This document shows, in pieces, positions 1 to 40,850 of a DNA stretch of 64,000 nucleotides. The stretch covers positions 248,001-312,000 of the forward strand of contig QPGO01000011.1 of the NCBI GenBank assembly GCA_008632985.1, in the 5' to 3' direction. A model generated the notes under the pieces. That model saw only the letters and a list, made by a program, of their open reading frames with translations, did no database searches and was not told the origin of the DNA. Position numbers and translations under genes: made by a program. The stretch's first letter is position 1, and every line of letters begins with the position of its first letter. Origin of the DNA: Psammoneis japonica. Its lineage: Eukaryota.

Positions 1-977
1 GCATCGAGAAGCGTCGGATTGGGATAGAGAGCCACAATGGTGCGAACGCACTCATAAACAACCGCATACCCGGCATTGATACCGACATCGGCCTTTTTGA
101 GAGTGTCATGAAGAATCTCATAAGCTCCAGAACTGGCAGTAGCATCGTTGGTTCCTAGAATTCCCAAAATGCGGATGATCTTCATTTGCATCCACGGCGC
201 AGGCACACGGTGATAATCATAGTCACTTGGTAGGCGTCCTTCTCCAATTTGTTTTAGAATAGAAACAAGAGATGGGATCAAGTCCTTGAAAGGACCTGGG
301 TCCGACGCAGCCATGGCCTGAATGACATTGAGCGAAGCTCCCATAACAGAGGGATCTCGGTCACACAAGACCTTACGTAGCTTATCTGTCAACTCCTCTT
401 TGGTGACGGTTTCAGGTGCCAATTGATGGAATCGATGCAAGCAAATAATGGCCTTTTTGCGTACCGTTTCGGATGCATGATCCAACAGAGGAGTCACAAG
501 CGTCGTCATGGCTGGCACCATATCACTGGTAATTAGTGAAGTAGACGCCAAGAGACCTCCACAAATCTCTAGTACGTGTGTCGACTGCAAATCCCGTTGC
601 ATTTGATTGACCAGCATGAAACGAAACTCATGAGACGGTGCCAAACACGCTCCACATACGAGATACCCCGTGCGTTTGTGGTAGAGACTGGCAGACGCAG
701 CCATCTCCACCGCCTTGATGTATCCAAAACTGCCGTCGTGGCCCAACATCTCCACATACAAGAGCCGTACGAGAAACTCCTTGGCTCGTTTCTTGGATCC
801 CAAGAGGTTCTGGTTCTTGCCTGGGCCCGACTGAATCACGGCAGGCGCCTCCATTTGCTTTTTGAGCGTCTGAACTTCCTTTGCAATGATACGATCTTCT
901 TCTTGCTTAGACTTGGACTCGCCGATTGCTTTTAGTAGTTCAAAGAACTCTTTTGAGAGGTTCGTTCCGGACGCCAT
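1..977 (-). CDS. AP4E1: AP-4 adaptor complex subunit epsilon, 5' part (runs off the window)
   Basis: Manual translation from ATG at 977: MASGTNLSKEFFELLKAIGESKSKQEEDRII...LVRLLYVEMLGHDGSFGYIKAV...KRTGYL...DYDYHRVPAPWMQMKIIRILGILG, typical of epsilon-adaptin. Frame is open to position 1. Confidence 0.9.
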   Translation of the reverse strand, partial: MASGTNLSKEFFELLKAIGESKSKQEEDRIIAKEVQTLKKQMEAPAVIQSGPGKNQNLLGSKKRAKEFLVRLLYVEMLGHDGSFGYIKAVEMAASASLYHKRTGYLVCGACLAPSHEFRFMLVNQMQRDLQSTHVLEICGGLLASTSLITSDMVPAMTTLVTPLLDHASETVRKKAIICLHRFHQLAPETVTKEELTDKLRKVLCDRDPSVMGASLNVIQAMAASDPGPFKDLIPSLVSILKQIGEGRLPSDYDYHRVPAPWMQMKIIRILGILGTNDATASSGAYEILHDTLKKADVGINAGYAVVYECVRTIVALYPNPTLLD

Positions 978-1440
978 GGTTTGTTGTGGGGGTGCTGTAT
1001 GAGTAGTTGGAAGCGGTTACGAATCTCAGCGCCGGTGCTGTCGGTCATCGCGGTGCTCTGTCGCGATCGCGATCGCGACGATCGCGACGACCTACTGCAT
1101 CCAATAGCAATGACGCATTCTGCTTTTCGAAACGCCAAATTCCAGATTCCGTTTTTGAATACCCCGTTTTTTTTCAGCACGAGCAGAGCACTCTCATTGG
1201 TTCGTCTTCGAAGCGACGTAGAAAGGATACCACACCCTACGACGACCCTCACAAATGCAGCTCAAGCAGCGATGGAGCTCAAGGCTCAAGCGCAAGTGAA
1301 GCAACAAAAAACTCCAAAACGACGACTTCTAACTTGTTCTGCAACGTGCAACCCATTGTCATCTCGAACGTGCTCATAAAATTAAAAAAACAATAGCTTA
1401 TATGGGCAACGCAAAATCTTCAACAAACACAAAAGTCAAC

Positions 1441-8232: not shown

Positions 8233-9165
8233 TTATGCTGACACCAATTGTTCCAACTCCTGTTGGGACATGTCTGTGACTTCTCGATGTGCCCTGTAGA
8301 GGTTCACAGCGTTGTAGAGTGCGTGGCAAAGGATTGGAACTGCCAAGTTTGAAGTAGAGGCGTAGATGCGGCCAAACACTGCCCCCACCATGCCCGTGAC
8401 GGCTCCCACAATTGCTGACTTGTTGACAGGGTGTTGATGAGACGCACCAAAGACAATGGACTGAAGCAAAATGGCCGGATTGGTTCCTACCCGGCGTCCT
8501 AGAAAGGTTTGCAACACACCACGAAACATCAATTCTTCGCTCAATCCTACCATAATGCCGAGCAGACCAGCAGTAGCAAGTGCCGAGGAGGTTTTTCTCT
8601 TGTGACCTCCCATTAAGGCTAAGGCAAACAAGAGTGGAGTTGGATTCGTTCCTTTCCCCTGTTTCTCGTCCTTTGCAGCTTGCTTTTGCCGTTCGGTGAG
8701 TATTGCCGGCAATACCAAAAACCCGACAGTAAGGATAAAGGCGGCTCTCAGGACTTTCATATTGATTCCAAAATTTGCACCTAAGCCACACTTTGGAATA
8801 TCTAGTATAAGTGATACGACACCAGCAACGTAAATGAGCTTGGTATGGTATTCTACAAACCGCGACAAGATCGCATAGGAACCTCTGTCATTTTTGGGCC
8901 GCACAGGTGTGACAGCATCAGACATGGCTGCGAGACGCACTGCATCCTCGTCATTGTTATCACTAGATTTTTCCCAAAGTTCAGCTAAAGATGACGACCT
9001 GGTCCTTCCCACAGTGCCCGGCGTGATTTTGCTTTTCATTTGATGACCACAACGGGAAACACGAGCGTGTTGGAGGGAACAATGGTTCGGTGCGAAGGCC
9101 TCTGATATTTGAAAACAGAAAGCCGCGAGCAGCACGACGCTGTGTACCACTCGTGAGACCGTCAT
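8233..9165 (-). CDS. CPBP/Abi (CAAX protease-like) intramembrane metalloprotease, probably plastid-targeted
   Basis: EELMFRG, FGASH and HALYN motifs. Signal peptide ends in SEA-FAP, matching the diatom ASAFAP motif. Confidence 0.85.
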   Translation of the reverse strand: MTVSRVVHSVVLLAAFCFQISEAFAPNHCSLQHARVSRCGHQMKSKITPGTVGRTRSSSLAELWEKSSDNNDEDAVRLAAMSDAVTPVRPKNDRGSYAILSRFVEYHTKLIYVAGVVSLILDIPKCGLGANFGINMKVLRAAFILTVGFLVLPAILTERQKQAAKDEKQGKGTNPTPLLFALALMGGHKRKTSSALATAGLLGIMVGLSEELMFRGVLQTFLGRRVGTNPAILLQSIVFGASHQHPVNKSAIVGAVTGMVGAVFGRIYASTSNLAVPILCHALYNAVNLYRAHREVTDMSQQELEQLVSA

Positions 9166-21611: not shown

Positions 21612-21788
21612 GCCTTGTAAAGACCGACAAGGGGAGATGACCTCATCACCCATTGATGGCGCATCGGGAAGTCACCCCCCGCTCTGCCTCCATTGAACGC
21701 ATCTAAGTTGGCGTCTGGAAGCAAGCTGCTGTTGCTCATTCTTCCAAAGAGCTTCAGCAGCAAGCCAAATGGACAGTCTAAAAGCGCT
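21612..21788 (+). repeat. Split direct repeat A1
   Basis: Matches 26844-27022 (gcct.gtaaagaccgacaagggg...gacagtctaaaagcgct). Confidence 0.95.
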
Positions 21789-21805
21789 GTTGTGTTCGGC
21801 GGAGG

Positions 21806-24130
21806 ATGCCATCCGCCGCTGCATCTACAAAGCTCGCAGGATTGTCACACGTTGTGAATCAAGACGGAAACATCGGAAACAATCCGCCGCCGGATGCCGC
21901 TGCAGCGGCACAACAACCTGGGGGCGGACAAAATCAACAACCGATTCCGGCGGCCAACAATGCCCAGAACGTGCCGCCAGCACCGGTGCATCCAGTGGCT
22001 GGCAGTGCCAGGAGCAGCAGCACAACCAGCCGCAGCGCAGGCAGGACAAGCCCCTGGAGCACCACCACAACAGCCACCACCCCAAGTGCCACCCGTGCCG
22101 CCAGCAGGTCCCGCGGGGCAGGGCATTCCAGCACCACCAGCAGCAACCCGCACTTGTCGGGATTGCCACACTCGCATGCCATCAAGGATTCACACGCCGG
22201 TGACTGTGCGGAAATCATGCAGGACTTCATGGTCCCACCACAAGGACAGTCACGCTGTGACCCTGACATGCTGAGAAACCGAGTTGGGGCAGCTTCATCA
22301 CACGATTTGCCTGTGGCTCTTGTGCAGCACTGCCGGGTGCCAGGAGGTGACGACATTGGAGTCATGCAGGTGCTCCATTGCACAACCCAGCACCCAATCA
22401 CGGCAGCAGGACCAGCACAACCGTGGGACGGACAATTTTTTGCGCTCGCAGGCGACCTGACGATGGGACAACACCAACTTGCACCCATCGCTAATGATGC
22501 ATTCCAGTTGGCCCAACACGGCACATGGGTGCCGACCGACGTGGCGCTGCAAGCCCACATTGTTGCAACCCCGGAAGGATTGCATCCACAAGTGCAGCCA
22601 AATGACCCAGATGCTGTTGAGGTCAGGACGCGGAACACCATGATGGTGCCATTCGCGTCTGTTAATCTCTTGCTTTCAATGCCGTTGATGCCGAAGCAAG
22701 CATTTGCCCGGGTGCTGGGAGCTGTCACAGCTGCCAATGCAGTCAACGAATGCAGGCCACTTCTGGATTTTTTGAAAGTAGCATGCTGCGCAACAGCGTG
22801 GGACCAACACACATCCGAAGTGGTGCAAGCATGGCCAACGATGGCGCAACCACCCAACGAAGTGCCAACTCGTTTCTTCAATGCGATGGTGCAGCGCGAT
22901 CTTCCGAACCGCGCAGGCCAACTGCTGCAACCGCGCCAGTTTGAACCAGTGGTCACTGCCATCGAGAGCTTAACAGCAGAGCAGCGCCAACAACGTTTAG
23001 ATGCGGAAGCGCGCCAACAGGCGGCATCGCACGGCAAAACACCGACGGAGTTCTGCGGGGAGTTTGGCATGGCCAAACTCATGCATTTGTGCCAGGTGCA
23101 TCATGAAGCCAACCTGCCACCACTCTGGGCGCAACTGGCGGCCTCTCCCAAGACCGGTTGAATCGCCGCCGTCCAGAATGCAATCGATGAGCAACGGCAA
23201 GCACACCACGTGTACTTCAATGTGCCGGTGACCGTAAATCTGGTCACAAAACTTGCCCAAGTCGACTTTGCCGGGCACAACAAGGACAAGTTAACTCAGG
23301 GAATCACCCCTTTTTTGTTCAGCATTGCTGCACCAGAACAAGCCAAGCAGACCGCCTGTCGCAACTCTGTGCATCAACAGATTCATGGAGGCGATGGTGC
23401 ACCTTCGCTGGCAGACACGCGAGTGTTGGAAGCCCCCGGCGATGCCATGGTGGCTGCTGCGATCCAGGCGGTTCAACAGTCTTTCGATGGGTTGCGCATC
23501 ATCCTCTCTGCAGCCTTTGGCACAGCACATCCACTGGCACAGTGGTTGACTCACATGCACCAGTCCATGGACGTCCAAGCGAATGATTTGGCGGTGCAAG
23601 TGGTGTCGCACCCGACGTCACCAGCGGACCTACAATGTTGCGCGCAGGCAAAGATGTGCCATTGGTTTCAAGCACAGACGTGCTCACAAAACCCTGTCCC
23701 ACTCCAACCACTCCCAGTGGTGGCTGAGGCCGCACAAGGCGCCTGCCATTGGCGTCTCGACTCACCGACGTCTGTCCTTCAACCGCCCACGACACCACGT
23801 TCGCAGACCTCTGTGCAGTCACCGCCTGGACCAAGCCGCATAAATGCGCCAGGCGACAATTCTGTCGTCCGTAACGAACAGTGCGACGAGTGCTTCACGG
23901 TCTTGCGGGACCGTCCCAATGTACGTTCTCGCACCGTCAAGCAGTGCTGCGCCCGTGACAACATTGCCTTGCCTGTGGATTCCCAAGGGGCGCCTCGTTG
24001 TCTTCCACACCATTTCATTGGACAGTGCAACAACAACTGCGGATCAAGGGCCAATCATCACCATGACCACATGGAGCAGGAGCAGGTCGACCTTCTCGCG
24101 TGGGGTGCGCAACATTGGAAGACCGAACAG
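21806..24130 (+). pseudogene. Ngaro ORF1 (gag-like) with a C-terminal Cys/His finger
   Basis: Long Tyr-poor reading frame broken by TGA at 23159-23161, ending RCLPHHFIGQCNNNCGSRANHH. Confidence 0.7.
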
Positions 24131-24289
24131 GTCATCGGCAATGGCTCCTGCTCGGGGACATGGAACCAAGAGCCACTTCCCACATGGGCACACAAGCCCA
24201 TGCATCCACAACCCCTGCAAGTGGAGTCTAGGAAACGGCGCTTCAGCCCCACAACAGGTGGACAGGATGTGGCCGCATCAGTGCTGACT

Positions 24290-26215
24290 GACAAATCAGG
24301 CAAGCAAATTACACGCGATGCACAATCATTGCGCCTTAGAGGCCTCAGTTGCTTGTTGCGTCTGTGCAGTGGTGGAGGTGACTGGGGACCATTGGTGACA
24401 ACGCGACAGCATGCAGCACACCAAGTGCTCACCAGCTGCAAATGTTGAGGTGCACCGGTCACTGTTGCAGACGCGCCATGGTCCAACACTGAGCTCCAAG
24501 GTAGCATCGCTCGAGGACCACACAAGTCCGCCTACGAACACATCGAGTTTTTGCGCAAAGACATGTCTGACTATGTCGACAAGGGTTTCTGGGTGGTTGT
24601 CCCACATGACAACGTCAAAAAATGAACCCAATCTACGGCTGAGCCCTGTCGGCAGCGTGGTCCCTCAACACGCACGTAGACCACGACCGATTGTGGACTG
24701 CACATTCTACGGTGTTGACCCTTCCACACAGCCAAACGTGCCAATGGAATCCATGCAGTTCGGGCGCACGTTGGACCGCATCCTTCAGCGCGTTCTCCTC
24801 GCCAATCCAAACAAAGGCCGCATCTGTCTCATGAAGATTGACTTGGCTGATGGCTTCTGCCACATGCAGCTGGCGCCAGAGCAAGCACCCACACCAGGTG
24901 TGGTTTTTCCCCGCCTTCCCGGAGAACCCCCCCCCAGTGGCCATGCCCACTTGGCTGCCCATGGGATGGTCCAACTCACCACCGGCATTTAGTGCGGCAA
25001 CCAAGACGGTCACCGACATTGCCAATCACCAGCTCATGTGCAACCATCGGGCACCGCACCACCCACTCGAACCTCATCTTGCCAGCCGTCCACCAAAGCA
25101 CCACGCCATCACTGCTGACGTGAATCCGTCTGTCGCTGTCCCAGTGCCAGACACGCCGGATCAACACCTCGCGCACCACCGCCAGTGGCACCTCCAATGT
25201 GTTGACATCTACATTGATGACTTTGTTGGCGAAGCCCAAGGCTCCAAACAATCGCCATGCAATGTGCATCGCACGATCATGCGTGCCATTGACGATGTGT
25301 TCCGTCCACTTGACGACCAAGACCACCCCAGTTGCAAGGAGCCAATCTCAGTCAAAAAGCTCTGCAAAGGCAACACCACTTGGTCAATGCAGAAGGAGGT
25401 CCTGGGGTGGATCATTGACACTTTGTCCATGACCATCTGCCTTACGCCGCGACGCCGCGAGCGCCTCCGCACCACGCTGTATGAAGAGTTTCCCCGCCAT
25501 CGCAAGCGGGCAGCACTTGGCGACCTGCACAAGCTTCTTGGCGAACTGCGATCCCTCACGCCCGGCATTTCCGGGTCTCGCAATCTGTTCTCCGAACTCC
25601 AGGAAGCCTTGCTCCACACTGGGCCAGACGGGTGAGTTCGTCTTGCCCGCAACTTTCACGACATCTTGGATGATTTTCGGTTGTTGTGCCGCAGGCTCGA
25701 CCTCCGCCCCACCCGTGTCCAAGAACTTGTCCCCCCTTTTGCCTGCTGTCACAGGCTGCCATGATGCAGCCGGTCATGGCGCAGGGGGGGGTCCTTCTCC
25801 CTGCGCCGTCAGCAGTCGCACGCAGCACCACGCTGCGTCACTCCACTGCGCACCGCCGGAGACCACAACACAATGCCGGACCTGTTGTCTGGCGCATGAA
25901 TTTCCCTCGGGCAGTCATCGACCGACTGTCCACCTTTAAGAATCCCCGCGGCCCTGTTGCCAACACCGACTTGGAGTTGGTTGGTGGCATTGTGCAATCC
26001 TGTGCCGGGGCAGACTGTTTCGACGTTCGAGAGCGCATGGTGCTCAACCGCGCGGACAACACCGGCACTCTCTTTCGTCAACGCAAGGGCTCCACCACCA
26101 CTGCAAAGGTTGCAGCACCCCTCCTCCGACACCAAGGTCACCACCAACGTTTCCACCACTGCCTGTTGCTCCACGATCATTTGCCGGGACTGTTGAACAC
26201 CGCTGCGGATGAATC
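24290..26215 (+). pseudogene. Ngaro reverse transcriptase + RNase H
   Basis: RPRPIVDC, KIDLADGF, LPMGWSNSPPAF, YIDDF, KEVLGWIIDT, HDAAGHGAGG, NTDLEL and HLPGLLNTAAD. Frameshifted. Confidence 0.9.
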
Positions 26216-26611
26216 CATTGCGCGAAACATCTCCGCGCCTTTGGCACCACACCAGACACGCCCCTCGGTGTGTGCTTGCATGACAACACCTGGTGCCGTG
26301 TCTCTCCCGCCAACATTGCCAGCATCCTGCGCACCGCAATTCTGGCAATCGGCCCCGCTACGCTGGGTTTCACACCCGCCGATGTCTCCGCTTGCTGTTT
26401 GCGCGTGGCTGGTGCCGTGGCCCTCCCATGTGCCCATGTTGACACCGACGTGATCCGCCTCTCAGGCCGATGGTGCTCCGACAAGATGCTTCGTTGCCTC
26501 CACTTGCAAGCAGAACCTGTCATGCGCAATTTCGCAACCCGCATGTTGGCTGGCGGCCAATTTGTCCTGCACCCCAATGCCGACGTGCCCCTTGCTGCCG
26601 CCGACCCGTGA
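26215..26611 (+). pseudogene. Tyrosine recombinase C-terminal fragment
   Basis: VSACCLRVAGAVAL...IRLSGRWCSDKMLRCLH corresponds to the SLRxGGA...GRWxSD..xxY boxes. The N-terminal part is absent. Confidence 0.85.
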
Positions 26612-26709
26612 TTCCATCACAGGCCACGCCTCAGCCTTCCAGCCGGGCCCACCCACCCACCCAATTGCACCGCCACTGCCCACACCAGTGTACATGGGTG
26701 GTGCCAGAA

Positions 26710-26843
26710 TGGCCATGCCATTCCAGCTTGGGAATGGAAAGGGACCAACTGCACTGGCAAAGTCCTCCCATCCCTGCCAATTGCCTGTCTCTAGAATCAG
26801 ATCACCGCAAGAAGTCGTGCGAGCAAAGCGACGCCAGTCGCTG
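26710..26843 (+). repeat. Split direct repeat B1
   Basis: 134 bp, matches 27041-27174. Confidence 0.95.
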
Positions 26844-27022
26844 GCCTCGTAAAGACCGACAAGGGGAGACATGACCTCATTGCCCATTGATGACGCACCG
26901 GGAAGTCACCCCCCGCTCTGCCTCCATTGAACGCGTCCAAGTTGGCGTCTGGAAGCAAGCTGCTGTTGCTCATTCTTCCGAAGAGCTTTGGCAGCAAGCC
27001 GAACAGACAGTCTAAAAGCGCT
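26844..27022 (+). repeat. Split direct repeat A2
   Basis: Matches 21612-21788. Confidence 0.95.
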
Positions 27023-27040
27023 CCCACCTCTCCCTCCCTC

Positions 27041-27174
27041 TGGCCACACTGTTCCAGCTTGGGAATGGAAAGGGATCAACTACGCCAGTAAAGTCCTCCC
27101 ATCCCTGCTAATTACCTGTCTCTAGAATCAGATCACCGCAAGAAGTCGTACGAGCAAAGCGACGCCAGTCGCTG
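27041..27174 (+). repeat. Split direct repeat B2
   Basis: Matches 26710-26843 but retains its TpA sites. Confidence 0.95.
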
Positions 27175-27220
27175 ATCAGCAAATTGAGAAGGGCAACCTT
27201 GGAGTGCAGCTGCCCGACTG
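27175..27220 (+). mobile_element. Continuation of the interrupted Copia RNase H, then truncated
   Basis: (g)at cag caa att gag aag ggc aac ctt gga gtg...tgc ccg act = DQQIEKGNLGV..CPT, which continues FFVT from 21610. Confidence 0.85.
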
Positions 27221-27482
27221 TGACAACACACATGTCTACTGGGGCCCTGGTACTCCTTCTACGTACGTAAATTTGGTTTTCCGGAGTTCTTTTGCGGGGT
27301 AACCTCTTACTTGCAAGAAGGAAAAAAAAGCGCTGGCGCAGATCAGATAGACCCGAGACCGTCACAATGGCGCTAGCATCTCTCTAGAGAGTCAAAACGA
27401 TTGTGCCCTTGAGATTAATGGAAGCATTCTGAAAGCCTTTGACCACATCAGATATTTTAGAGCTGCGCCCTCTAGAGCTCGA

Positions 27483-28450
27483 ATGGGAATGAACGCCTTG
27501 CTTGCCCGAGCAGTTGCCGTTATTTCCTCCACTCCAGTAATGGTACAGAATGAACGAATCACACTGTACTTTTACGGCCTCTGGATGGGCTCTGCATACT
27601 GCCTCGCAATGCTGGCAGCTCTCTTTCACCTTGTGCATCATTTCGACACCCAAACTGTGCAAGAATATCTTTGGGTTATGACTCAGTACGTATTTCCTGG
27701 TGCTGTTCTGGGCGCAAGACTCTGTTCTTGGTTTCTTGAGGATAATTTGAAAGTCTCCAAACTATTTCGTTCTGGTTTCTGGTGGCATGGAGGATTGGTG
27801 GGTACACTGCTTGGAATGTCCATTGGTTGTGCATTTCATGAAGTGCACGTGGTTCCAATACTTGATGGCTTTGGGTTGGCCATACCCGCGTTTGAAATCT
27901 TCAATCGCCTTGGATGTCTATCATATGGCTGTTGTTGGGGACGGGCCGTACATGCCTCTCATCCACACGCCATTCGGTTTGACAATCCACGATCTTGTAT
28001 TCATCGAAAGAATTCTAATGTCAAAGACGAGTGGCTTTATCCCGTCCAGGTGTATGCAGTTATTCTTCGTTCCTGCAACTCTTGATACTATGGCCTCTGG
28101 TGTGGACAATAAGGCAACGTGGCGTGCTGTTATTCTTGGGTATGACTAGTAGTTCCGTTGTTCGTTTAGTTTGTGAAAAGTACCGAGGAGATTTTCGGGG
28201 CAATGGAGTAATCTCCACCAAGATCTTTTGCGTTGGTCAAGTACTGATAGCAGTCCTTTACTATGCGTTTTCACAAGGTGGTTACAACGATCTGCCATCA
28301 ATAGATGGTACCGTCACTTTGGCAATAAGTAGTCTGATGCAGCTCGTACTGGTAAACAAGCTACGGTTCGGGCTGGTGTTTGTGTCAGCCATGCTTGCCT
28401 ATGGATCTGAGTGGTCGCAAACAACCATGACCAGTGTCCCTGCTAAGTAG
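27483..28450 (+). CDS. Prolipoprotein diacylglyceryl transferase (Lgt)-family membrane protein
   Basis: FYGLWM, GAVLGARL, GFWWHGGLVG, FNRLGCLSYGCCWGR, YPVQVY and VRLVCEKYRGD. One frameshift near 28060. The start may lie upstream (ATG at 27367 if frameshifted). Confidence 0.85.
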
Positions 28451-28569
28451 ATCGATGGAAGCCTCACGTTTCGATGGGAATGAAAAGAAAGTTCATTCAT
28501 CTTTTAACTAATATCTAAACCACGAGTCTCACTGAGGGCGGACGAGTGCTCTCAAAGCGCGTTTGATAA

Positions 28570-30760
28570 TCATACTATAGTAAACGAGGCCCAGAAAGAG
28601 GGCACTACTTCAAGGACCATGATGGTCTCGACATCCTCACAGTAGCCAATCCATTCCATTGGGCTTCCACCATACACCTCGTCTTCTGAAAGGCGTTCTC
28701 CGGGCATCACCTGAGTCATTGGTATGACCTTCACATTGTTGCCAACTTGACATCCTGGAAGTAACACGGATCGAAATCCTATCCGGCAGTTCTCTCCAAC
28801 CGAGATTGGCTGAAATTCAAGCTTTCCATTCTGAAACGAATGGCCGAGTATCGTCACCTCGTCCTGTATGACAGTATGTTTTTTCACCGTCAAAAGATCC
28901 GCTTCTATCACTAGTGCTGAAGATGACACTGCAGTACCAGACTCTATGTTTGCTCCAAAGGAGTTCCAAATGCAACGGGTGAGCCAAAAATCATTGATAA
29001 CCTGAAGTGCCACCCTGGTGGAAATTGAAATAAGAATGCTGGCTGCCATCCACCGGAGTATGCCCATGCTAAAAAACTCGGCGCTTGGGGCATTAGTAAA
29101 CTTCCCAATGACTACCCACTTAATAAGCCAGCCGACAAACAGCAAAGCTACCCACACGCCGCTTAAAGAAGCAAGCATGACTCCGCAGAAAACTAGGAAT
29201 CCATTGCCAACAACCAAGTAAAGCACTCCGCACACTCCAAGGAGCAGTGCTCTCGTCAAATAAGCGTAAGGAACAAAGATCAACACCATTTCCAGAGCAG
29301 TGAAAAGCCATTTTCTGACCGCCGAAACTGATGCGACATTCAAAGTGCCCTCTTTTCGCCTCGAATGGCTTTTCAGCGGAGGATTTCCAAAAGTCAGGCA
29401 GTTCTCTTCGACTGCTCCCTCAACAACGGTTCCTGCCCCGACTGTGACATTATCTGATAAAGTCGACCCCTCCTTCAACACGGAGCGGTCAAGCACAAAC
29501 GAATTTGAGCCGATACTTGTCTCTTCAAATGTTGCAATGCCATTGCAGTCTACACTGAAGCTGCGAATGACAACGCCATTTGCCATGAAAGTGCCGCTTC
29601 CTGAGACAAACAAATCTGGTTCGTCCGACACGGCTGCAAAGCTATCACACAGTGATGCCGTACGTGCACCAAGGCACCACATCACTGTCCTTCTCAGGAA
29701 GCCAACCTGGGGGCAGGTACGTTCCTTGCAAGCTGTAGTGCCAACCAACGTCTTGCAAATTCTGTCGACAAGACATGACAACATCCGGGTCGAGCGCGGC
29801 CGAAGAGAAGAACCCGACGTAATGCCCACACAACAGCACAAGCAACTAGAGCACCAAGCATGACCCAGACTGGTGACAAAGCGACATATAAAGCTGCAAA
29901 CAAAATGAGATTGGATCCAATTGAATCATACAGAACCTTGACTGCAACAAGGTACACCAAAAGGGTTGCAAGGACAGGGATTAGCATCACAAATGGAGTC
30001 GCCCATCGTAGGACTAATCCAAAGACCTCAGATCTTTTTTCTCCACTTGATAGATGGTCAGTAACTAGTTCCTTTTTCTGCATGAGAGTACCGAAAACCT
30101 TGCATTTCGGTCCAACATGTGCATCTCTCGGCACATAGGTGAGTGGCCCGACTTCTGCGTGCTTGCCAACTGAACTATTCATCCCCAAAACCGCTCGAGG
30201 TTGGACTATGCTTCCATCGCCAAGAGATATACGTCCAGATTCGATTCTTGATGGCAGTTCCTCCATGCATCTCAAGGCTACACTTGATGAAATGTAACAG
30301 TTCGATCCGATCGAAACATGACAAGGATTTCGCAGGCAATTCTCCTCTACGAAAACGTGGCGTCCTATCTTTGCCCCGAAAGCCCGATAAAAACATGGGA
30401 GCCATGGTGTGCCGCCAATGAACGAGCCATGAATGGCATCAGTCAGTAGCCAGAGCCTATCAAAGATATACCATCGGTATGCAGAGAACGAGGAGGAACT
30501 CACAGTTCCTTCCTCGACATTTCTGATCAGAACTAGCTTTGAGCTCAGCGTCAACGCCAAGAGCAAAAGATAAAACGAACCGATTCCGGCTACGACATAT
30601 CCAAAGAGGCTCCCCAGTGTGCTGAAGCGACCTGCGCTGGTCAGCAAAGAAACGAAGGGAAAGAAATGATGCAAAGTAGCAGTGCAACGGATATGACTGC
30701 AGCCAACTTTAGAAGAAGAACATGGAAGCAGTTGCCTTGAACCTCAACATTAAGTCCGTC
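28570..30760 (-). other. NRPS terminal domain: transmembrane segments alternating with three left-handed beta-helix repeats, epsilon-poly-lysine synthetase (Pls)-like
   Basis: [45 protein letters not shown] and [34 protein letters not shown], separated by hydrophobic helices. Confidence 0.8.
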
Positions 30761-33700
30761 AGCAGTCGAATACAGAGGCGTCTGGATTTGTGCTGCATAC
30801 CGGTGGGCTGTGCTCAGCCGTTGTGTGATGGTTGTAGATAGTCGACGACAAGTACGCATTCATACACATCACGCACAGACAACTTGTCCTGTGACAAACC
30901 TGATTCCCGTGCTTTCGACACAAACTGCGCAATGGTAAGGGAGTTCGCCCCTAGCGACTCAATAATATCCGCTGTCACCGATACAGTTTCTGATGGAATT
31001 TCCAATACTCCCGATATTATCTCAACATGTCGAGCTTCCATCTCATTTGAAGGTGCCACGTATTCTTCCTCAGATGAACCTGCCAGAAGGGGATCGAGAA
31101 TCATCCCCAAAAGCGCTTTCTCGTCCACTTTGCCATTTGAATCCAAGGGCATCGCATCGACAACTTTTACTTTCGATGGAATCATGTAGTCCACCAGCAT
31201 GCGACGGCACCATGTCGTCAGATCGGAGCTCTCCGCCTTTCTTGACCCAATGAGGTAACGAACGCAACCAGCCGAGACCGAGGCTCGTCCAACAACACAA
31301 CAGCACGGTCCACATCTTCGTGTCTCTCCAGTACGGACGATACTTCGCCAAGCTCGACTCGGTATCCTCGCAACTTGACATATGACGCCTTGGACTTAAC
31401 TCGGCCCACAAAATCCAATAACCCATTCGGCAACACGCGGACGAGGTCTCCTGTTTGGTACAGGCGATCGAAGGCACTTTTCCTGCCATCCTGCGTTCCA
31501 TGACTGGACTCGACGGGGAAGAATGGGTTGGGTGCAAAGCTTGCTTGAGTCTCTTCTGGTCGATTGCAGTAACCTCTCGCGAGGGCGACACCACTGATAT
31601 AAAGTTCGCCGATAACTCCAATGGGAACTTGATTCATGTCATTGTCAAGAACATGCAGCTTGACATTAGCAATTGGGCGCCCGAGACTAACACAGGAGGA
31701 GCCTTGCATGTTATGGACGTTGGAGGGCCTCTGCCGTTGGAAAGGTTGAAGTTACGGTCACCGTGGTTTCTGTTGGCCCGTACGTATTGTGAACTTCAAT
31801 ATCTGGCATCGACGTTGTTAGCTGCCTAAATCGCTTGCTCGAAAATCTGTCCCCACCACATACGAAACTTGGGTAGGAACCACTTGGTTGTATTTCGAGT
31901 CCATCCAACAGCCCTGGCGAACAGAAGAGAAGCGAAACATTCATTGCCAAAACTAGCTCTCTCACATTGCTGATTAGGTCACGAGCAAGTGCTGGAGGTA
32001 CTAAACAAAGACATCCGCCAGATCCAAGAGCATACAACATCGTCTGAACGGAAACATCCCATGTGAGGCGCGATGTCAATAGCAAATTGTCGCTACTGCC
32101 CCCTTGGCCGATTCGCCCAGGATATGCACCAAGAAAATAACAACCAAGATTGGCAACAGATCTGTGCTCGATTTCAACACCCTTTGGCCGGCCTGTGCTC
32201 CCCGATGTGAACAAAACGTAGCACAAGTTGTCCAGCCCAACCTCCACGCCCCTTGGACGATGCGAAGACTTGCCATCTAAACCTGCGTCTTCAATGGCAA
32301 ACGCATGCCTCTCGAGGCGTCTGTGCAGGTCGTCTACTCTACTGCTCACGCAAACACTAATGTTGGCATCCTCCACAATACTCGCAATTCTCCCATCGGG
32401 ATAGTCATCATCCATGGGGACGTAGGCAGCTCCAGCCTTGAGGATGCCCAAAACAGCAATGATCTGGTCAAAGCCACGTGGGAGCAAAATTCCGACACAC
32501 TCCTCCACCTGAACATCGCAGTCCTCTAACAAGTAGTGCGCCAGCTGGTTAGCTCGGGCGTCAACTTCCTGGTATGTCATGGTCTCATCCATCATGCGAA
32601 GTGCGACCGAGTCCGGTACACGATCTACCGTAGCCTCAAAGAACTCGTGCATCAGTGGCCACTTCTTCCAGTCCACTACTTGACCAGTAAGGGCCTTTTG
32701 TAAAAACTGCTCCTCCGCAGCAGGTAGCGCCAGGGCATCGCTCACTGACCCGCATAGCTCTCTCCCTTCCTGCGTTATTACTTCTAGTGCCTTGAGGTAG
32801 GAAGCCAAGAAGCGCTCGGCCGATTCTTCACCCCAGATACTTCGCTTGACACAAATCGATATCGAGCACTTAGTTACGGTGCACTCAATATCGAACTTTG
32901 GTGGCAACATGCTTTGCTCCCACATCATGTCAGAAGGCTCGAAAAGACCCCCTTCGCTGAACGCTGTGTTCATAGGAGGACCTGCCTTGCTCATGTCGTA
33001 GTTGAGTAATGCTTGGAACACGCCTCCTTGCCCCTGTCCCGGCACCTTGGATGACACCACATCAAATGGCACGTCAGCGTGGTCGAGTGCTTCCTGCCAC
33101 AGTGCCCAACGGTCCTCCATCAGTGACACCAGATCCATTTGGTTAATTTCGCCACGTAACCGCAGAGCTATGGTGTTCACGAACATCCCAATCATAGATG
33201 GACTATCCACGTACCCTCGTTCTGCAACTAGGAGGCCAACAACCAAGTCATTCTGGCCGCTGTATCGCTTTAATTGGATTTCCAAGGCACACAAGCACAT
33301 CACGACTGGCGACAATTTCAGCTGAAATGCGGTTTTCTGCAATGACTTCATGAGAGGAGTACTGAATGGCCGAGATACAACCACACATCCAGTCTCATTC
33401 CTACCAGACATTAGGCCTCCTGCTGCAGATGAAGGCTGGATATCTTTTGAGAGACTTAGCATGGGGAGAGGCTCACCATCCACTTCAACGCCAAGGTGGT
33501 CGATCCAGAAGGATGCATCTGCAGGCCCGTTCTCCATTTCGTCACGGAACTGTGCCCATGACCAGTCAACGTAGTCAGACGCCAAAGTGGGCAATGTATT
33601 AGTGTCTTCATACAATTCCGCCAACTGCTTCACGAACGGTTCCACACTTCCGCCGTCGAAGCCGATGTGATGAAATACCAACAGCAATTCGGAAGAAGAA

Positions 33701-36700
33701 GGTAGAAAGTATGCTCGCAACGAGCATTCTGTCGCCAGATCAAAGGGCACAAACATCAATCTCTTTAGCTGCTCGGCATAACCTTCTCGGGTGCCCATGC
33801 CATCCAACACTTCGATCTTGAACTCATCTGCTAAACTGGCATCAACAACACCAATCGTTGACGTTTCACAAGTTGGATCACCCACATATTTCGTACAAAG
33901 CACTCGATGTACCTTTAGCATCGCACGTGTGGCACACTCTAACCTATCGATATTAACCCCATCACGCACTCGTAAGAGGTGAGGAATGTTATATGCCCCG
34001 CTCTTAGGATCCATGAATTGAGCCAGCAACAGTCGCTGCTGCGCGTGTGTCAGTGGATAAGCTACCTCGCTGCTATCCTCGGCGGCTTCGAAATCGTACT
34101 TCGACTGAGCCAGGCGAGCCAAGAATGATGGGTGCTTCCGCAATGCCGAAACCTCCTCCGGAGATAACACACAAGAAGAAAGTCGACGCGGGACATATTC
34201 ATTCCTGAAGGACAGCATGGACTGTTGTTTCTCTCGCCAAGTAAGCAACATTGCAATCTGATGTACCGTTGGTGACTCATAAACATCCTTGATCGACAGG
34301 GAGGCAAACGAGCCTCCAAACTGCCTCGTTTCAGATACAAACTGTGCAATCACAAGGGAGTTCGCGCCCAAAGTACCAAAAGCATTTGCAGAAACCGAAA
34401 CGGTCTCGGACGGAATAGCTAAAACCTTTGCAAACGCTTGAACAAGCTGAATCTCCATCGCGTTCGAAGGTGCCAAGTATTCTTCTTCCTCGGATTGGGA
34501 TGCACCTGCCAATAGGGGATCGAGAATCATCCCCAAAAGCGCTTTCTCGTCCACTTTGCCATTTGAATCCAAGGGTATCGCGTCCAAAACCGCTACTTTC
34601 GATGGAATCATGTAGTCCACCAGCATGCGACGGCACCATGTCGTCAGATCGGAGCTCTCCGCCTTTCTTGACCCAGATGAGGTAACGAATGCAACCAGTC
34701 GAGATCGAGGCTCATCCAACACACAACAGCACGGTCCACATCTTCGTGTCTCTCCAGTACGGACGATACTTCGCCAAGCTCGACTCGGTATCCTCGCAAC
34801 TTGACATATGACGCCTTGGACTTGACTCGCCCACAAAATCTAATAACCCATTCGGCAACACGCGGACGAGGTCTCCTGTTTGGTATAGATGGTCTTGTGT
34901 AAGTCTGTGACCAATGTCGCCATTGCATTCAATGAATGGATTCTGTGTAAAACTTGCAGAAGTTTCTTTCGGACGATTCCGATAGCCTCTCGCGAGGGCG
35001 ACACCACTGATATAAAGTTCGCCGATAACTCCAATGGGAACTTGATTCATGTTTGTGTCCAGCACGTAGAGTTGAACATTGGGGATGGGGCGCCCGATAG
35101 GTACGGCAGAACCACTTTCCTTACTTAGTAACAATCCTTCATCATCGTAGAATGTCTGCGTCACGTTGACGGTTGCCTCAGTTTGGCCATATACATTGAA
35201 CACGTGGCTTCCTAATGACCGGAACAGAGCAATCGTATCTTTACTCAGCACGTCGCCTCCGACAACGGCGCACGGGCACTTTGGCAGACTTTCGGGGTCG
35301 AGTCCATGAAGTAGTGAAGGCGCCGAAACTATCAAGGTAACATCCATGGAACGTACAAGTTCATTGATATAGCCAACAAGATTTGGGGCGAACTTTGGTG
35401 GAACCAAGCAGAGAGAGCCACCAGATACAAGTGGATAGAGCATCGTGTCCACAGACCCATCCCACGAAAGGCGCGAGGAAAAAAGGACACGGTCGGTTAT
35501 GGTGCCCAAGCAAGCAGAGCGTTGAGAGATTACACAACCGAAATTGGCAACAGATCTGTGCTCGATTTCAACACCCTTTGGCCGGCCTGTGCTCCCCGAT
35601 GTAAACAAAACGTAGCACAAGTTGTCCAGCCCAACCTCCACGCCCCTTGGACGATGCAAAGACTTGCCATCTAAACCTGCGTCTTCAATGGCAAACGCAT
35701 GCTTCTCGAGGCGTCTGTACAGGTCGTCTACTCTACTGCTCACGCAAACACTAATGTTGGCATCCTCCACAATACTCGCGATTCTCCCATCGGGATAGTC
35801 ATCGTCCATGGGGACGTAGGCAGCTCCAGCTTTGAGGATGCCCAAAACAGCAATGATCTGGTCAAAGCCACGTGGGAGCAAAATTCCGACACACTCCTCC
35901 ACCTGAACATCGCAGTCCTCCAACAAGTAGTGCGCCAGCTGGTTAGCTCGGGCTTCAACTTCCTGGTATGTCATGGTCTCATCCATCATGCGAAGTGCGA
36001 CCGAGTCCGGTGCACTATCTGCCGTAGCCTCAAAGAACTCGTGCATCAGTGGCCACTTCTTCCAGTCCACCACTTGACCAGTAAGGGCATTCTCGAGGAA
36101 AAGTTTGGATTGTTCCGGAATGATAGTCAGATCTTTTGCAGGCTTATCCAAGGCGCCAGGTGCAGTCATGCTGCGAAGCACCTGGAAGAAGGACGAGAGG
36201 AAGCCTTCTGCAAAAGACTGACTCCAAATCATTTTGTGGACCAAGAGCTTGAACCGGTCCTTATCTCGTTCGAGTACGATGTCAAAATGAGAAAAGGCTG
36301 GATCGAACGTTTCATTGACACAGGAAGCAATCTCTAAGTCTGCCGTGGTTTCTCGAATGTTTGTGACGTAGTTGAAGATGGCTTGGTATACTCCCTGACA
36401 CCTCTTTCCTTTTTCAGCCACCACGTCAAAAGGCACATCTGAATGTTTTCGCGCAGATGTCCAAAGGAGAGAGCGCTGGTGCAGTAGATCTTTCAGTGTA
36501 AGACAGCCGCAGTCGCCCTCCAAGAGCAAAGCGAGAGTGTTCACAAACATTCCGACTGTTTTTTCAAACACATTCGCGTGTCCTCGTACGGTGACGGGAA
36601 TCCCAACGACGATGTCATCTTGTCCCGTGTACCTCTTAAGTACAATTTCGTAGGCAATCAAGTAAATAAGAAATGGAAAAGTGTCAAACCGAATTGCCAT

Positions 36701-39700
36701 ATCCTCAACAGCTAATTCTAAGCTTTGGTCGAGTGACTGAGTGACCGTGGTTGATGCAAACCTGTGTCCTCCTGGTTCAGCCTGAGGGTCTTTCGGCAGT
36801 TGCAGTATCGGGAGTTTCGCACTTTCATCATTCAAATGGAGATGATTAATCCAGAAAGACGCGTCAGGAACAATGCCGTCGAATTCGGCACGCTCAAACT
36901 CGAGCCAAGCGTAGTCCACGTATGATGCAAATCGTGGAGGCAAGGCACTTGCATTATTGTATAGGGAATTCAGTGCACGGTGAATAGTTGCCATGGAGCC
37001 TCCGTCAACGGCTATGTGGTGGAATACGGTCAACAGCTCATTGGAAGTCTCAATATAGTAAGCTCGCATAGAGGCCTCACGCCGCAGGTCGAAGGGTAAT
37101 ATGGCAAGCTCTTGAGCATCGACGTCTGTGCGCACAACTCGATCGAATTTGAAAGAATCTGCCCATTCCAATTCGATGACGCCGATTGATGGATCAGCTG
37201 AGCCGATGTCGCCCACATATCTCGTGCACAAGACGCAATGCATCTTGAGAAGAGACCGAAACGCATCCTCAAGACGATCAATGTCAGTGTCTCGCCGAAG
37301 TTTCATTAAAATGGGAATGTTGTAGAGACCTATGTCTGGATGCATGTCCTGAATAAAAAGCATGCGTTGCTGGGCCCGGGTGAGTGGATAATGACGAAAA
37401 CTGTCAATTTCAAGATCCGCTTCTTGAAATGCAGAGCAGGACCGGACACGCTGACGATAATGTTCAGAAGTACATAACTCTTGTCTTGATGCGGTTGTTC
37501 GATCGTTGCAGCCTTTTTCAGATACTATTGCCAAGGCAGCTTGGCTCAACTGGTCCACTATCCGATCGATTGATTCTGTTGCAAAGTTGGACTTCACGAT
37601 ATCATTTGCCGTTTCGAGATCTACGCTTAGCCGAAGTGAAGATGCGAAAGGGATAAGGAGCGCAGGGCTGCTAATTGTCACTTTGTCCAGAAGCAGATCT
37701 TGGGCTTGGACTCGGATGCCATAGCGCCGGAAAAGGTGACCCGTGAAGGCCACCATGGCCATCGAGTCCATGCCAAGTTCCTGCAGGGTAAGATCATTGG
37801 TAACTAAGGCAGCGTCTATCTTCAACTTTCTGGCAATTATGCAGCGAATAATTTCAATCGCAATCAAACAATGTGGATCATTTGTGGGTGGGAGTGTAGT
37901 CCGATTCCTAGTCACTCCGGAACGGCCGATTCCCGCCGGGAAAAGGGAGCCGGACGCCACCATCGGCAAGTCATGTTCAAGCAGAGCATCTTGTTTCGAG
38001 TCAAGTGCCCAACGAAAGAGCTCACGTAGGGTACCAGATACTGCTTCAATCCTGCACTGCTGTCGACGAATCTTCCCACTTGACGTTTTAGGGATCGTCC
38101 TTTCTTGCAACAAAATGATGACAGCGGGAGTAAGAGAATGTTCGACCTCGATAGTCTGACGGATGGACAGAGCCAAGTCAGAAGATCTCATCTTTCTTGC
38201 CTTTGCTTTGAGTACCTGTGAACGAACTTCGACGGCAATGGCTACAGCCTCCTCCTGTCAGTGCCAAGCACTTGCCAGCTGAATGCAGCGACGCACCCTG
38301 GGCGCACCGAAGCGCCCATTGACTCATCAATAGTATGCTCGATGTCTTGTGGAGCAATGTTTCTGCCTCGCACAATCATAAGATCCTTGCTACGACCAAC
38401 GATGTACAATTCGTTGTCGTGCAGAAAGCCCATATCGCCCGAACGAAGCCACGATCTTTCCAATAAAGCGCTGTCTTCTTCACCCAACCCCCGACCAGCT
38501 TTGCTTGCAGTATATCTCGAGTGACTTTCGGTTTGTCAAAATAGGCCTCTGACTTTGAGCATGAAGATAACCAAACTTCCCCGACTTCGTCTTCCTTGAG
38601 CGCCATCCCGCTTTCATCCACAATCAACAAGCAAATATCGGAGACGACAGAGCGACCACACGAAACAAAGCTCACATTCGACGCCTCGTCCACAACTACC
38701 TTGCCTTGTCTTTCCAAGGAATGTTTTTGAACTCGGAGGCATGTCCCGACCAGCAAGTAACTGTCGCCAGTAATGTGTGCTCGGCCATTCCGTAGGAGGG
38801 ACGAATGACGTTTCCCTGCAAGTTCATGGGACCAAACTGGGTACAGAACGCTTGCAACGCCGACTCTTGAATAGGCTCTGCGCCACACATGATACAATCA
38901 ATGCAAGACAAATCAACTGTCATGCCCCTGGGCCACTTGCGAACGACAAGATTAAAGGCAAAATTGGGCGCGACCAAGACAGTGCTACGAAACTTGGATG
39001 CCGCTTTCAACCAAAGCGGAGGATTCTGAATGAAAGAAATGGGGCTCATGATGGCAAGTAACGAGCCACTGTACGCACTAGCCAAAGAGGAGATCAAACC
39101 CATATCATGATACAACGGTAGCCAGATGAGGACTCGATTCTCATTGGGCTCGCGATCCATCATACCACTGCCGACGATGATACGTGAAGCTGATGACTTA
39201 TGTTCTTGTGAGAAATGACAACACCCTTTGGTGATGATGTTGACCCAGAAGTGTATTGAAGGAAAGCTACATCATTTTGTATCGGCTTTGGAATGGTTTG
39301 GTATACACGACAAGCGGTGTCCCTTTTGACAACAATCCAAGTCACTGTTGGAATCTTGATGGATGGCTTTCTTGTGAAACCGCCCTTCACTGTCGCTGCA
39401 ACAGCTGCGCGAACTCGAATACGATTATATTCCTTATCCGTCAAGGCCACCTTTGCACCACAATCTCTCAGTATATGCGAGAATCGTTCCCAGTCCATCT
39501 GAATATGAGGGCGTGGTGGGATAACAGGTACTGGGATGACACCAGCTTTCAAACAGGCGAGGAATGTGACTGTAAAGTCTAGGCCAGGAAGAAACGAAAG
39601 AATAGCACAATCACCCTTTGAAAGACCAACTCCACCCTCTTGTTTGCTAGCTCGCAACCAACAAGCGAGATTCGAGGTGACTTGATGGAGTTGGCGAAAT

Positions 39701-39882
39701 GTAAGCTCATCCGTAACTTCAAGTTTGTCACTAATGAACTGGTAAGATACCTTTTCAGGCGCTTCTTGTGCCCACAATTCAATCGCATCGAGTATCGAGG
39801 CCGGAACTGGAGTTCCATCAGCAAAATGGCCTCTTGAATTGACGACATAATCGTCATTAGATTCTACTCGTGGCAGCGCCAT
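28570..39882 (-). CDS. Multimodular NRPS: FAAL-T-C-A-T-C-A-T-Pls-like terminal membrane domain (~3,750 aa if frameshifts are corrected)
   Basis: Consecutive ORF pieces overlap or abut through apparent 1-bp frameshifts, with no intron evident. See the domain entries below. Confidence 0.85.
30830..34070 (-). other. NRPS module 2 (C-A-T)
   Basis: [53 protein letters not shown] and LGANSL. Confidence 0.9.
32150..32694. repeat. Intragenic near-identical repeat (A-domain N-terminal core), partner at 35544-36088
   Basis: Long identical stretches by eye. A second pair covers about 31090-31460 and 34515-34885. Confidence 0.95.
34250..37400 (-). other. NRPS module 1 (C-A-T)
   Basis: [53 protein letters not shown] and LGANSL. 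Confidence 0.9.
37670..39882 (-). other. Loading module: fatty acyl-AMP ligase (FAAL)-like domain + carrier domain
   Basis: [75 protein letters not shown] and LGMDSM. Confidence 0.88.
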
Positions 39883-40850
39883 TTGCTTTCAAAGTGCCCT
39901 CTCTCGCTCTCGTTTACTGCCTGCCAATTCACCAACACTGCGGCTTTCACCTCCTCTCTTGTTCTCTCTTACTTGCGTAGAAGCATTTTTATCAAAAAGA
40001 GAAGACGCGAAACAAACTCTGTTGCCGATGTGCCGACGGCCCAAAACCAACACCGAATTGATGAGCCTGTTTGCCGGTTGTCGTCAGCAGGCAAATGGGG
40101 CCCTAAGTACCCGGATGGGGTGAACTGACATTTTTCAGCAAAGGCACTGCGGCACTCAAGGAAAGGAACAATGTGTGAAGCAAAGTGTGACGAGCAGACA
40201 CAAGGAGTTTGTGCAGAAGCATTGTGTCCAGCCACAGTGCTGATGGCTGCAGGAGTGAGCAGAGAAAAAGAAGAAGCGACAGCAGGTGGAGGGAATCACA
40301 TGACGAACCAGGAGCCCAAAAAGAGAGAGTTGTGAGGCTGTTTTGCGGGTGCCAAAAGCAAGCAATTGAGGTGCTCTGAAGCACAACCCAGCAAAAGCTT
40401 GTTGTCGCCCCAGCTGGTCAGCCAAGAATCCCCATGTGTTGTCCATGACAAAGCATCGCCCCAGCCATCACAAAGTGTTTTCAGCACCCATTTTGGTGTG
40501 TCTCGTGACCTGGTTGTTGTTGAGAGTTGCCTCACAAAAAACTGGTTCAGTGCTTGTTGCAAAATCTCCAAGCACGTGAAAGCATTGGAGCTTGCTGAAG
40601 ATGTCTCTGCTGCTGCTGTGAGCTGCTTCTGTCAAATGAGAGCACAAAAGCATGTGCTCCAGAACCTCTCTGCAGAGCCAGAAACTCATCTTTGCTGCTT
40701 TGGTGCAGAGCTCCCAGCTCAGTGCTCTACAGAGACACTGAGATCAACAAGAGCAGCACAAGCAGCAGAAAGTGGCTGTGCATGTTAGAACAGCAAGCAG
40801 CCAGAGCAACAAGAATGAGGTGCAGAAATGACCTCCAGCGTGCACCAGCA

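Follow-up and report, generated by a model that had tools for sequence, protein, structure and literature searches.

Prolipoprotein diacylglyceryl transferase (Lgt) is regarded as specific to bacteria and is being pursued as a target for antibiotics. Here, an Lgt-family gene was analyzed in a stretch of 64,000 nucleotides from the eukaryote Psammoneis japonica (contig QPGO01000011.1, positions 248,001 to 312,000; this whole stretch is called the window below), and its predicted product was compared with Lgt of E. coli and with closer relatives. Judging from the sequence and from structure modelling, we consider it fairly probable that the gene is intact and nuclear, and that its product is a polytopic membrane enzyme of Lgt fold, which is non-canonical, belongs to the YGCC-paralogue subfamily and falls into a small protist clade allied to Agaricales.

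In E. coli Lgt, R143 binds the substrate, and phosphatidylglycerol in the first site is bound by E151. The polar network of the cavity includes N146, N149, E151 and E202, and E202 helps to form the pocket for the glycerol moiety of bound phosphatidylglycerol (PMC4728403; this source and the two others cited below are used here in excerpts). Six residues, namely Y26, H103, R143, N146, G154 and R239, are absolutely required (PMC13251419). The replacements E151A and E151Q were inactive in PMC4728403, yet tolerated in PMC13251419. Distant Lgts have C, or C/D, in place of N146 and E151, and Cys146 is known from distant Lgts and from second paralogues with low or poor activity: Lgt of Leptospira interrogans (N146C) complements E. 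coli poorly or partly, and the second paralogue of M. smegmatis, MSMEG_5408 (N146C), is presumed to be of low activity (PMC13251419). A term search for 'eukaryot' in the text of PMC13251419 gave no occurrence. Our literature search turned up neither work on eukaryotic Lgt homologues nor on Lgt-like genes clustered with a non-ribosomal peptide synthetase (NRPS), and no member of the Cys-rich YGCC subfamily with an assigned function.

The Lgt-family coding region of the window lies at 27483-28450 on the plus strand, ends with the stop codon TAG at 28448-28450, and is a real gene. Its features are as follows:

27483..28450, plus strand: Lgt-family (YGCC-type) coding region, intron-free, with 322 codons and a stop once the T missing after 28065 is counted
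27570..27578, plus strand: FYG motif, its Tyr being the equivalent of Y26 of E. coli Lgt (from the alignment)
27786..27797, plus strand: HGGL motif with the equivalent of H103, preceded by FRSGF where relatives have RPG (from the alignment)
27903..27944, plus strand: signature motif NRLGCLSYGCCWGR, with R143 and G154 kept and with the changes N146C, N149Y, E151C and L152C
28038..28058, plus strand: YPVQVYA, the counterpart of E. coli HPSQLYE, with E202 replaced by Ala (from the alignment)
28065..28066, plus strand: site of a 1-nucleotide deletion in the assembly, the true codon being CTT (Leu), according to read contigs X1 and X2
28163..28186, plus strand: RLVCEKYR, with the equivalents of R239, E243 and R246 (from the alignment)

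In the assembly, the gene falls into two frames, 27483..28085 (200 residues) and 28031..28450. Residues 18-193 of the first frame matched positions 1-167 of the Pfam LGT profile (PF01790) with an E-value of 1.8e-19 and 70.4 bits, well above the gathering cut-off of 24.9 bits. Residues 11-75 of the second frame matched positions 165-235 (E 0.014). Near nucleotide 28061 one match gives way to the other, with a change of frame; the stop of the first frame follows at 28085. The original prediction, made from the sequence letters, had proposed an Lgt-family gene and a profile search as its check, and this search confirmed the family. It had missed, however, the frameshift at 28065, which puts the coding region into two frames in the assembly.

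We compared the window with contigs built from two runs of DNA reads, X1 and X2, which come from one sample of one study, have a word depth of about 50 and may themselves be the source of the assembly. Behind 28065, both read contigs carry an inserted T at full depth (X1, 52.6/52.6; X2, 46.6/46.6). With this T, the frame amounts to 194 + 1 + 127 = 322 codons, and the restored ..AVIL-S-F-L-Q-L-L.. matches AVILSALQLL of the orthologue P0001, a transcript of the MMETSP collection that is marked complete and is 55% identical to the window protein. Because the contigs of both read sets carry the extra T, the frame break is a deletion error of the assembly, and the gene is apparently intact. An intron as cause of the frame change was considered and rejected: the Pfam matches adjoin each other at about 28061, where profile position 167 of the one meets 165 of the other, and the homologues align straight through, so that the unbroken homology leaves no room for one. 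The original prediction, too, had seen no evident intron. Between 27000 and 40000, at least 28 insertion or deletion differences separate the reads from the window, and all 12 of the 12 listed are bases absent from the window. The listed differences, which all run in one direction, point to systematic deletion errors in the assembly.

The frameshift might also be taken as a sign that the gene is a decaying, functionless relic (pseudogene) of an old transfer. Besides the frame break in the window sequence, a reader favoring this explanation could cite a repeat element flanked by long terminal repeats (LTRs), whose end is about 300 bp upstream of the start codon, and a variable site in the motif FRSGF. 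At position 27771, the X2 contig has C where the window and X1 have T, which changes Ser to Pro; relatives conserve this Pro (RPGF), and the difference is probably one between haplotypes at a conserved site. One haplotype would thus carry Ser at the conserved RPG proline. However, the frame is restored at full depth in both read-derived contigs, the family-invariant residues are all intact, and the orthologue P0001 is a complete transcript. A relic is therefore highly improbable, and the gene is probably functional, as far as its sequence can tell.

The residues of the window protein were mapped by way of an alignment between its orthologue P0001 and the E. coli Lgt structure 5azb (chain numbering is native plus 1). 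In this alignment Y26, the H103-GGL motif, D129, R143, G154, R239, E243 and R246 are kept; the substitutions are N146C, N149Y, E151C, L152C and E202A. Y26, H103, R143, G154 and R239 were all found in the window protein as well as in the alignment with 5azb. The canonical signature GRLGNFINGELWG was not found, N146 and E151 both being Cys in NRLGCLSYGCCWG. By alignment, then, the phosphate-binding and catalytic residues appear to be kept and the residues predicted to read the head group to be remodelled. The motifs named in the original prediction are all present (FYG, HGGL, NRLGCLSYGCCWGR and RLVCEKYR). What needs changing in its reading is the type of enzyme: N146 and E151 are Cys, E202 is Ala, and the protein scores below the equivalog cut-off of the family, which makes it a divergent paralogue.

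This cut-off belongs to the NCBIfam model TIGR00544 (lgt equivalog, 118.9 bits). The N-terminal piece of the window protein scored 48.3 bits, and the full-length orthologues P0001, P0002 and P0004 scored 63.4, 62.4 and 61.0 bits, so that neither the piece nor the orthologues reached the level of an equivalog. As controls, the canonical Lgt of Cohnella scored 233.7 bits and the YGCC paralogue of the same genome 64.0 bits. The AlphaFold model of P0001 has a mean predicted local distance difference test (pLDDT) value of 89.9 and a predicted template modelling (pTM) score of 0.89. Its sole significant match in the PDB was 5azb (E 3.1e-8, TM-scores 0.60/0.66, 279 columns), and the model has the Lgt fold, a seven-transmembrane body with arms and head.

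Compared with E. coli Lgt (PDB 5azb/5azc), the window protein thus shares the Pfam family, the fold and the conserved catalytic and phosphate residues. It differs in that the identity is 18%, five signature or cavity residues are changed, the score lies under the equivalog cut-off and the gene resides in a eukaryotic host. The P0001 model also has an additional helix at the C-terminus (H301-316), and most relatives have a conserved GxHY..G.W tail. With the Cys-variant Lgts, namely Lgt of Leptospira interrogans and MSMEG_5408, the window protein shares the change of N146 to Cys, a comparison made from their description in the excerpts of PMC13251419 only. These Lgts are bacterial, and MSMEG_5408 also has Y26H, whereas the window protein keeps the Tyr (PMC13251419).

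These data also bear on the explanation that the protein is a true prolipoprotein diacylglyceryl transferase, which would attach lipid to lipobox-type cysteines in proteins that are secreted or belong to organelles. Of the six residues that E. coli Lgt absolutely requires, five are kept (Y26, H103, R143, G154 and R239), and the Leptospira Lgt retains some function with N146C. Nevertheless, the sixth required residue, N146, is Cys, E151 and E202 are replaced as well, the TIGR00544 scores reach half of the equivalog cut-off, and in Cohnella the YGCC paralogue coexists with a canonical Lgt. We regard a true Lgt as very unlikely. As judged from its residues and scores, the window protein is a divergent YGCC-type paralogue and not a canonical prolipoprotein diacylglyceryl transferase. 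Its membership in the YGCC subfamily is indicated by the motif RxGCxxYGCC[WYF]G and by its place in a clade of 49 rows with support 100.

A word-indexed search with the N-terminal piece returned three proteins, P0001, P0002 and P0003. When 1.84 billion representatives were searched exhaustively with a profile, 3359 matches were obtained at E <= 1e-3; only four of them (P0001-P0004) were closer than 1e-100, and the next followed at 2.4e-35. The window protein is colinear with these four in the alignment. The motif RxGC..(Y)GCC[WYF]G is present in most of the best 150 representatives, and therefore the Cys variant marks a large subfamily and is not peculiar to the window gene. Relatives are encoded by at least 423 stretches of prokaryotic genomes, and the best 80 of these were examined (L002-L081). 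Most of these 80 belong to Nannocystaceae and other Myxococcota, with 24-34% identity to the window protein. In five bacterial genomes, the number of LGT-family genes was three each in three Nannocystis genomes, seven in Paraliomyxa and two in Cohnella. Within these genomes the genes differ in motif type, Cohnella having a canonical one (GRWGNFMNQE) and a YGCC one. The YGCC paralogues of Nannocystaceae, other Myxococcota and further bacteria (L002-L081) resemble the window protein in the motif RxGCxxYGCC[WYF]G and in their length of about 320-390 residues, and they form the sister clade in both trees. They differ in their low identity (24-34%) and in their neighbours, which are kinases, hydrolases, redoxins and flavin adenine dinucleotide (FAD) monooxygenases and never an NRPS.

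Other relatives are eukaryotic. According to their NCBI names, P0008-P0038 come from Agaricales fungi (Mycena, Marasmius, Moniliophthora, Dendrothele and others), and many of them are called 'Prolipoprotein diacylglyceryl transferase-domain-containing protein' there. Like the window protein, they are eukaryotic; they share its type of motif, in the form SRxGCHxYGCC[YF]G, and fall into the same clade of 19 or 23 rows. Unlike it, the proteins of the P0008 group, about 450-660 residues long, have an N-terminal membrane extension of about 270 residues fused to the Lgt domain. A Pfam scan of this extension gave no match, and nothing similar to it was found in the window, where the only match below E 0.01 was the Lgt domain itself. 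The Atlas look-up of P0008 was uninformative (score 0.76). One relative bears the UniRef name 'TLC domain-containing protein'. A metagenome scan returned one related locus, L001 (2564 bp, P0004-like), whose contig ends 80 bp after the gene. Its upstream open reading frame (ORF; 205-1218, minus strand) was considered as a free form of the fungal extension and rejected, since neither BLAST similarity nor a Pfam match was found.

Fusions were found in 6 of 32 proteins of the wider subfamily: three with PEMT/ICMT, and one each with a carbamoyltransferase C-terminus, an FAD monooxygenase and a 4Fe-4S domain. In the Atlas, bacterial LGT+PEMT+PAP2 clusters are among the structural neighbours. As hints, these fusions and clusters point away from the classical lipoprotein pathway and towards the chemistry of lipids or small molecules.

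Trees were calculated with FastTree (146 rows) and with a quick IQ-TREE search under LG+C20 (58 rows hand-selected from the 146). In both, the window protein and P0001-P0004 form a clade with support 100. This clade lies within a larger one of 23 rows (FastTree support 99) or 19 rows (96 in the SH-like approximate likelihood ratio test, SH-aLRT), which also contains the fungal group and P0005-P0007. In neither tree does any of the 80 prokaryotic loci lie within this larger protist-fungal clade. Beside it stand a clade rich in Myxococcota and a mixed clade with Cohnella, Spirochaetales, Fibrobacterota and one metagenome-assembled genome (MAG) of the Asgard group. The members of known origin in the clade of the window protein, that is the window itself, the MMETSP transcript and the Agaricales fungi, are all eukaryotic. 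Because the protist-fungal group sits amid bacterial paralogues, most frequent in Nannocystaceae, the Lgt-like gene is likely an old acquisition from bacteria.

The original prediction had called the gene a bacterial-type Lgt in a eukaryote and had suggested a phylogeny as a check. The DNA is eukaryotic, and a bacterial origin is plausible, the family being otherwise overwhelmingly bacterial. What has to be corrected is the picture of a solitary bacterial enzyme in a eukaryote, given that the members of known origin in its clade are all eukaryotic. Rather, it adds a rare protist lineage to a eukaryotic Lgt-fold clade that is already present, uncommented, in annotated mushroom genomes.

Several points weigh against the reading of an intact, non-canonical YGCC paralogue in a eukaryotic clade. 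The structure and the NCBIfam comparison rest on orthologues that are 52-55% identical to the window protein and not on its own full-length sequence. Since the Leptospira Lgt with N146C is partly functional, the Cys substitutions are compatible with true Lgt activity. The conserved proline of RPG is Ser in one haplotype. P0005-P0007, which stand in the 'eukaryotic' clade, carry no assigned origin. Finally, the trees are quick or FastTree searches with long branches, and of the at least 423 prokaryotic relatives they include the 80 best.

If the DNA were contaminated with that of a bacterium or the assembly chimeric, the gene would not be eukaryotic. Indeed, the read contigs cover only 27325-31117 here and end short of any clearly eukaryotic gene. 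However, the window contains genes for Sin3/PAH, an Rce1-like protease, BRO1, CMS1, an RsmB-type methyltransferase and PCNA, and because Sin3, BRO1, CMS1 and PCNA were found in it, the window is eukaryotic chromosome DNA. Eukaryotic genes and the LTR element flank the Lgt-like gene within the same 64 kb. The GC content at third codon positions (GC3) is 0.42-0.48 in the Lgt pieces and 0.45-0.52 in the NRPS pieces, compared with 0.45-0.58 in host genes and 0.59-0.68 in the repeat element; the Lgt and NRPS pieces thus lie within or just under the range of the host genes, which they resemble. Furthermore, the nearest relatives of known origin are eukaryotic, and the best bacterial identity is 24-34%. 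Contamination is hardly conceivable given these data, and we retain the nuclear gene as the preferred reading.

The repeat element upstream of the gene is the following:

21631..27174, no strand assigned: LTR-flanked high-copy repeat element, with direct repeats at 21631-21788 and 26865-27022 that are 91% identical

The word depth was 832 at this element (bin 27000-27433), against about 53 elsewhere, with loose ends at 27172-27174. Its GC content is 0.57-0.59. A Pfam scan of its long ORFs (21806-26453) at E <= 0.001 gave no match.

CPBP proteases such as myxosortase and Rce1 cut adjacent to lipidated cysteines. The window encodes an Rce1-like/CPBP intramembrane protease at 8233-9165 on the minus strand (PF02517, E 6.7e-19), 18 kb from the Lgt-like gene; it is probably an ordinary eukaryotic enzyme.

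Because the catalytic and phosphate residues are kept and the head-group residues are replaced, the window protein probably catalyzes a phospholipid-dependent transfer with an altered donor or acceptor. The enzyme would take a phospholipid into its central cavity and would pass on a glyceryl or lipid moiety to a nucleophile on the side of the membrane that faces away from the cytosol. Either the head group of the donor or the acceptor would differ from that of canonical Lgt, and the three invariant cysteines may serve as disulfide or active-site elements. By adjacency only, the NRPS next door would be one candidate source of the acceptor. In Myxococcota, a not yet identified 'Lgt-like' enzyme has been posited to lipidate a non-lipobox C-terminal cysteine (myxosortase; PMC11980579, 2025). 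Non-canonical acceptors are therefore under consideration for the Lgt family, although, in the excerpts used here, this proposal is not specific to the YGCC subfamily. A tractable eukaryotic or bacterial member of the YGCC subfamily could reveal a new lipid-transfer reaction.

The neighbouring gene and the spacer are located as follows:

28451..28569, no strand: spacer of 119 bp between the convergent, tail-to-tail stops of the Lgt-like gene and the NRPS gene
28570..39888, minus strand: tri-modular NRPS with the adenylation (A), thiolation (T) and condensation (C) order A-T-C-A-T-C-A-T and a Pls/PosA-type membrane/hexapeptide terminal domain (Pfam and NCBIfam TIGR02353)

The stop codon of the NRPS gene is TGA at 28570-28572 on the minus strand. 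The original prediction had noted the closeness of the two stops, which was borne out, as was the Pls/PosA-type end of the NRPS. TIGR02353 matched two pieces of the NRPS (E 3.6e-28, model positions 51-331, and E 1.8e-27, model positions 353-694), both far under the cut-off of 423 bits. The NRPS resembles the Pls/PosA family in this membrane/hexapeptide end; it differs in having three A-T modules and two condensation domains instead of a single A-T. Typical Pls-like proteins are 22-23% identical to the terminal domain of the window NRPS, and the closest relative, P0182 (750 residues), is 38% identical. The second adenylation domain (34715-36049, minus strand) has LgrA, the linear gramicidin synthase, as its best relative in the PDB (E 2.1e-96); the next entry other than LgrA is far weaker (E 4.7e-73).

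The assembly breaks the NRPS gene into at least nine frame pieces. At or near six of its frame breaks, the reads have inserted bases (31249, 34720/34828, 38256, 38485, 38738 and 39890). Single-base losses split the NRPS into many frame pieces in this way, and ORF-based readings of the window will overcall pseudogenes.

The original prediction had gone on to propose that the Lgt-like gene and the NRPS gene form a two-gene cluster. In this explanation, the Pls/PosA-type domain releases the peptide and the Lgt-like enzyme lipidates or otherwise tailors it. The stops lie 119 bp apart and tail-to-tail, and both products are membrane proteins. Moreover, both families are mainly bacterial, which would make a chance encounter side by side somewhat unlikely. 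Some bacterial relatives are also fused or adjacent to tailoring-type enzymes (a carbamoyltransferase in P0015; FAD monooxygenases in P0027, L019 and L043).

To examine co-occurrence, as the original prediction had suggested, four NRPS pieces were compared by tblastn with 81 loci (L001 and the 80 prokaryotic ones), each extending up to 10 kb to either side of the Lgt relative where the contig allows. No match to the Pls-terminal or condensation domains was found in these loci; a weak AMP-binding match with 23% identity occurred in 2 of the 80 prokaryotic loci (L020 and L021). The neighbours of the Lgt paralogues were scanned with Pfam in 51 ORFs of 18 loci, hand-chosen from 153 candidates of 20 loci because spurious long ORFs are abundant in high-GC genomes. 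They turned out to be heterogeneous, with Ser/Thr kinases (L012, L016 and L017), alpha/beta hydrolases (L005 and L020), FAD monooxygenases (L019 and L043) and redoxins.

The Pls/PosA-type domain itself is rare in Myxococcota. Among 301 genomes of this phylum, TIGR02353 matched at E <= 1e-20 in six, over its full length in four and above the cut-off in one, and it was above the cut-off in none of the five genomes that carry the best Lgt-like relatives. A common origin of both genes from Myxococcota was therefore rejected. In the four Myxococcota genomes with a full-length match, no LGT-family gene lies on the contig of the NRPS, some of the LGT contigs being only about 4-5 kb long; all LGT-family genes of these four genomes are on other contigs.

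Conserved adjacency was thus not found in prokaryotes, neither in the 80 loci nor in the four NRPS-bearing genomes, and the arrangement in the window is convergent and not operon-like. The window is also gene-dense, and it holds another convergent pair, RsmB and PCNA, whose stops are 280 bp apart; closeness alone therefore means little. A functional link between the Lgt-like enzyme and the NRPS rests on the single adjacency in the window and is doubtful; the proposed two-gene cluster, for which nothing beyond adjacency was found, seems unlikely to us. That the tri-modular NRPS would pass a short peptide to its membrane-embedded terminal domain, and that the Lgt-like enzyme would then couple this peptide to a phospholipid-derived lipid at the outer face of the membrane, yielding a eukaryotic membrane-anchored lipopeptide, is quite unlikely. 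If it were true, the protist and fungal YGCC clade would represent a eukaryotic system of lipid transfer that has so far escaped notice and derives from bacterial Lgt. A tie to the NRPS is what would make this locus interesting, but the evidence for it is thin.

Some further observations were made on the prokaryotic relatives. A 2026 survey reported Lgt in bacteria and, in the excerpts used here, described it as absent from archaea (PMC13251419). An Asgard MAG (Promethearchaeota; L058, 10001-10606) has a YGCC-type Lgt-family gene, which groups with a Smithellaceae sequence. In L012, L016 and L017 (Nannocystales-type), 3 of the 18 loci scanned, the next gene downstream of the Lgt paralogue is that of the Ser/Thr protein kinase. 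In L019 (9956-12087, a Spirochaetales MAG) and L043 (9968-12083, Cohnella), the YGCC Lgt paralogue is followed by an overlapping gene for an FAD monooxygenase of the Pyr_redox_3/Lys_Orn_oxgnase type and then by an ORF of about 290 residues in which Pfam found no match. In P0027, the Lgt paralogue and the FAD monooxygenase are fused. The arrangement shared by L019 and L043 looks like a conserved operon.

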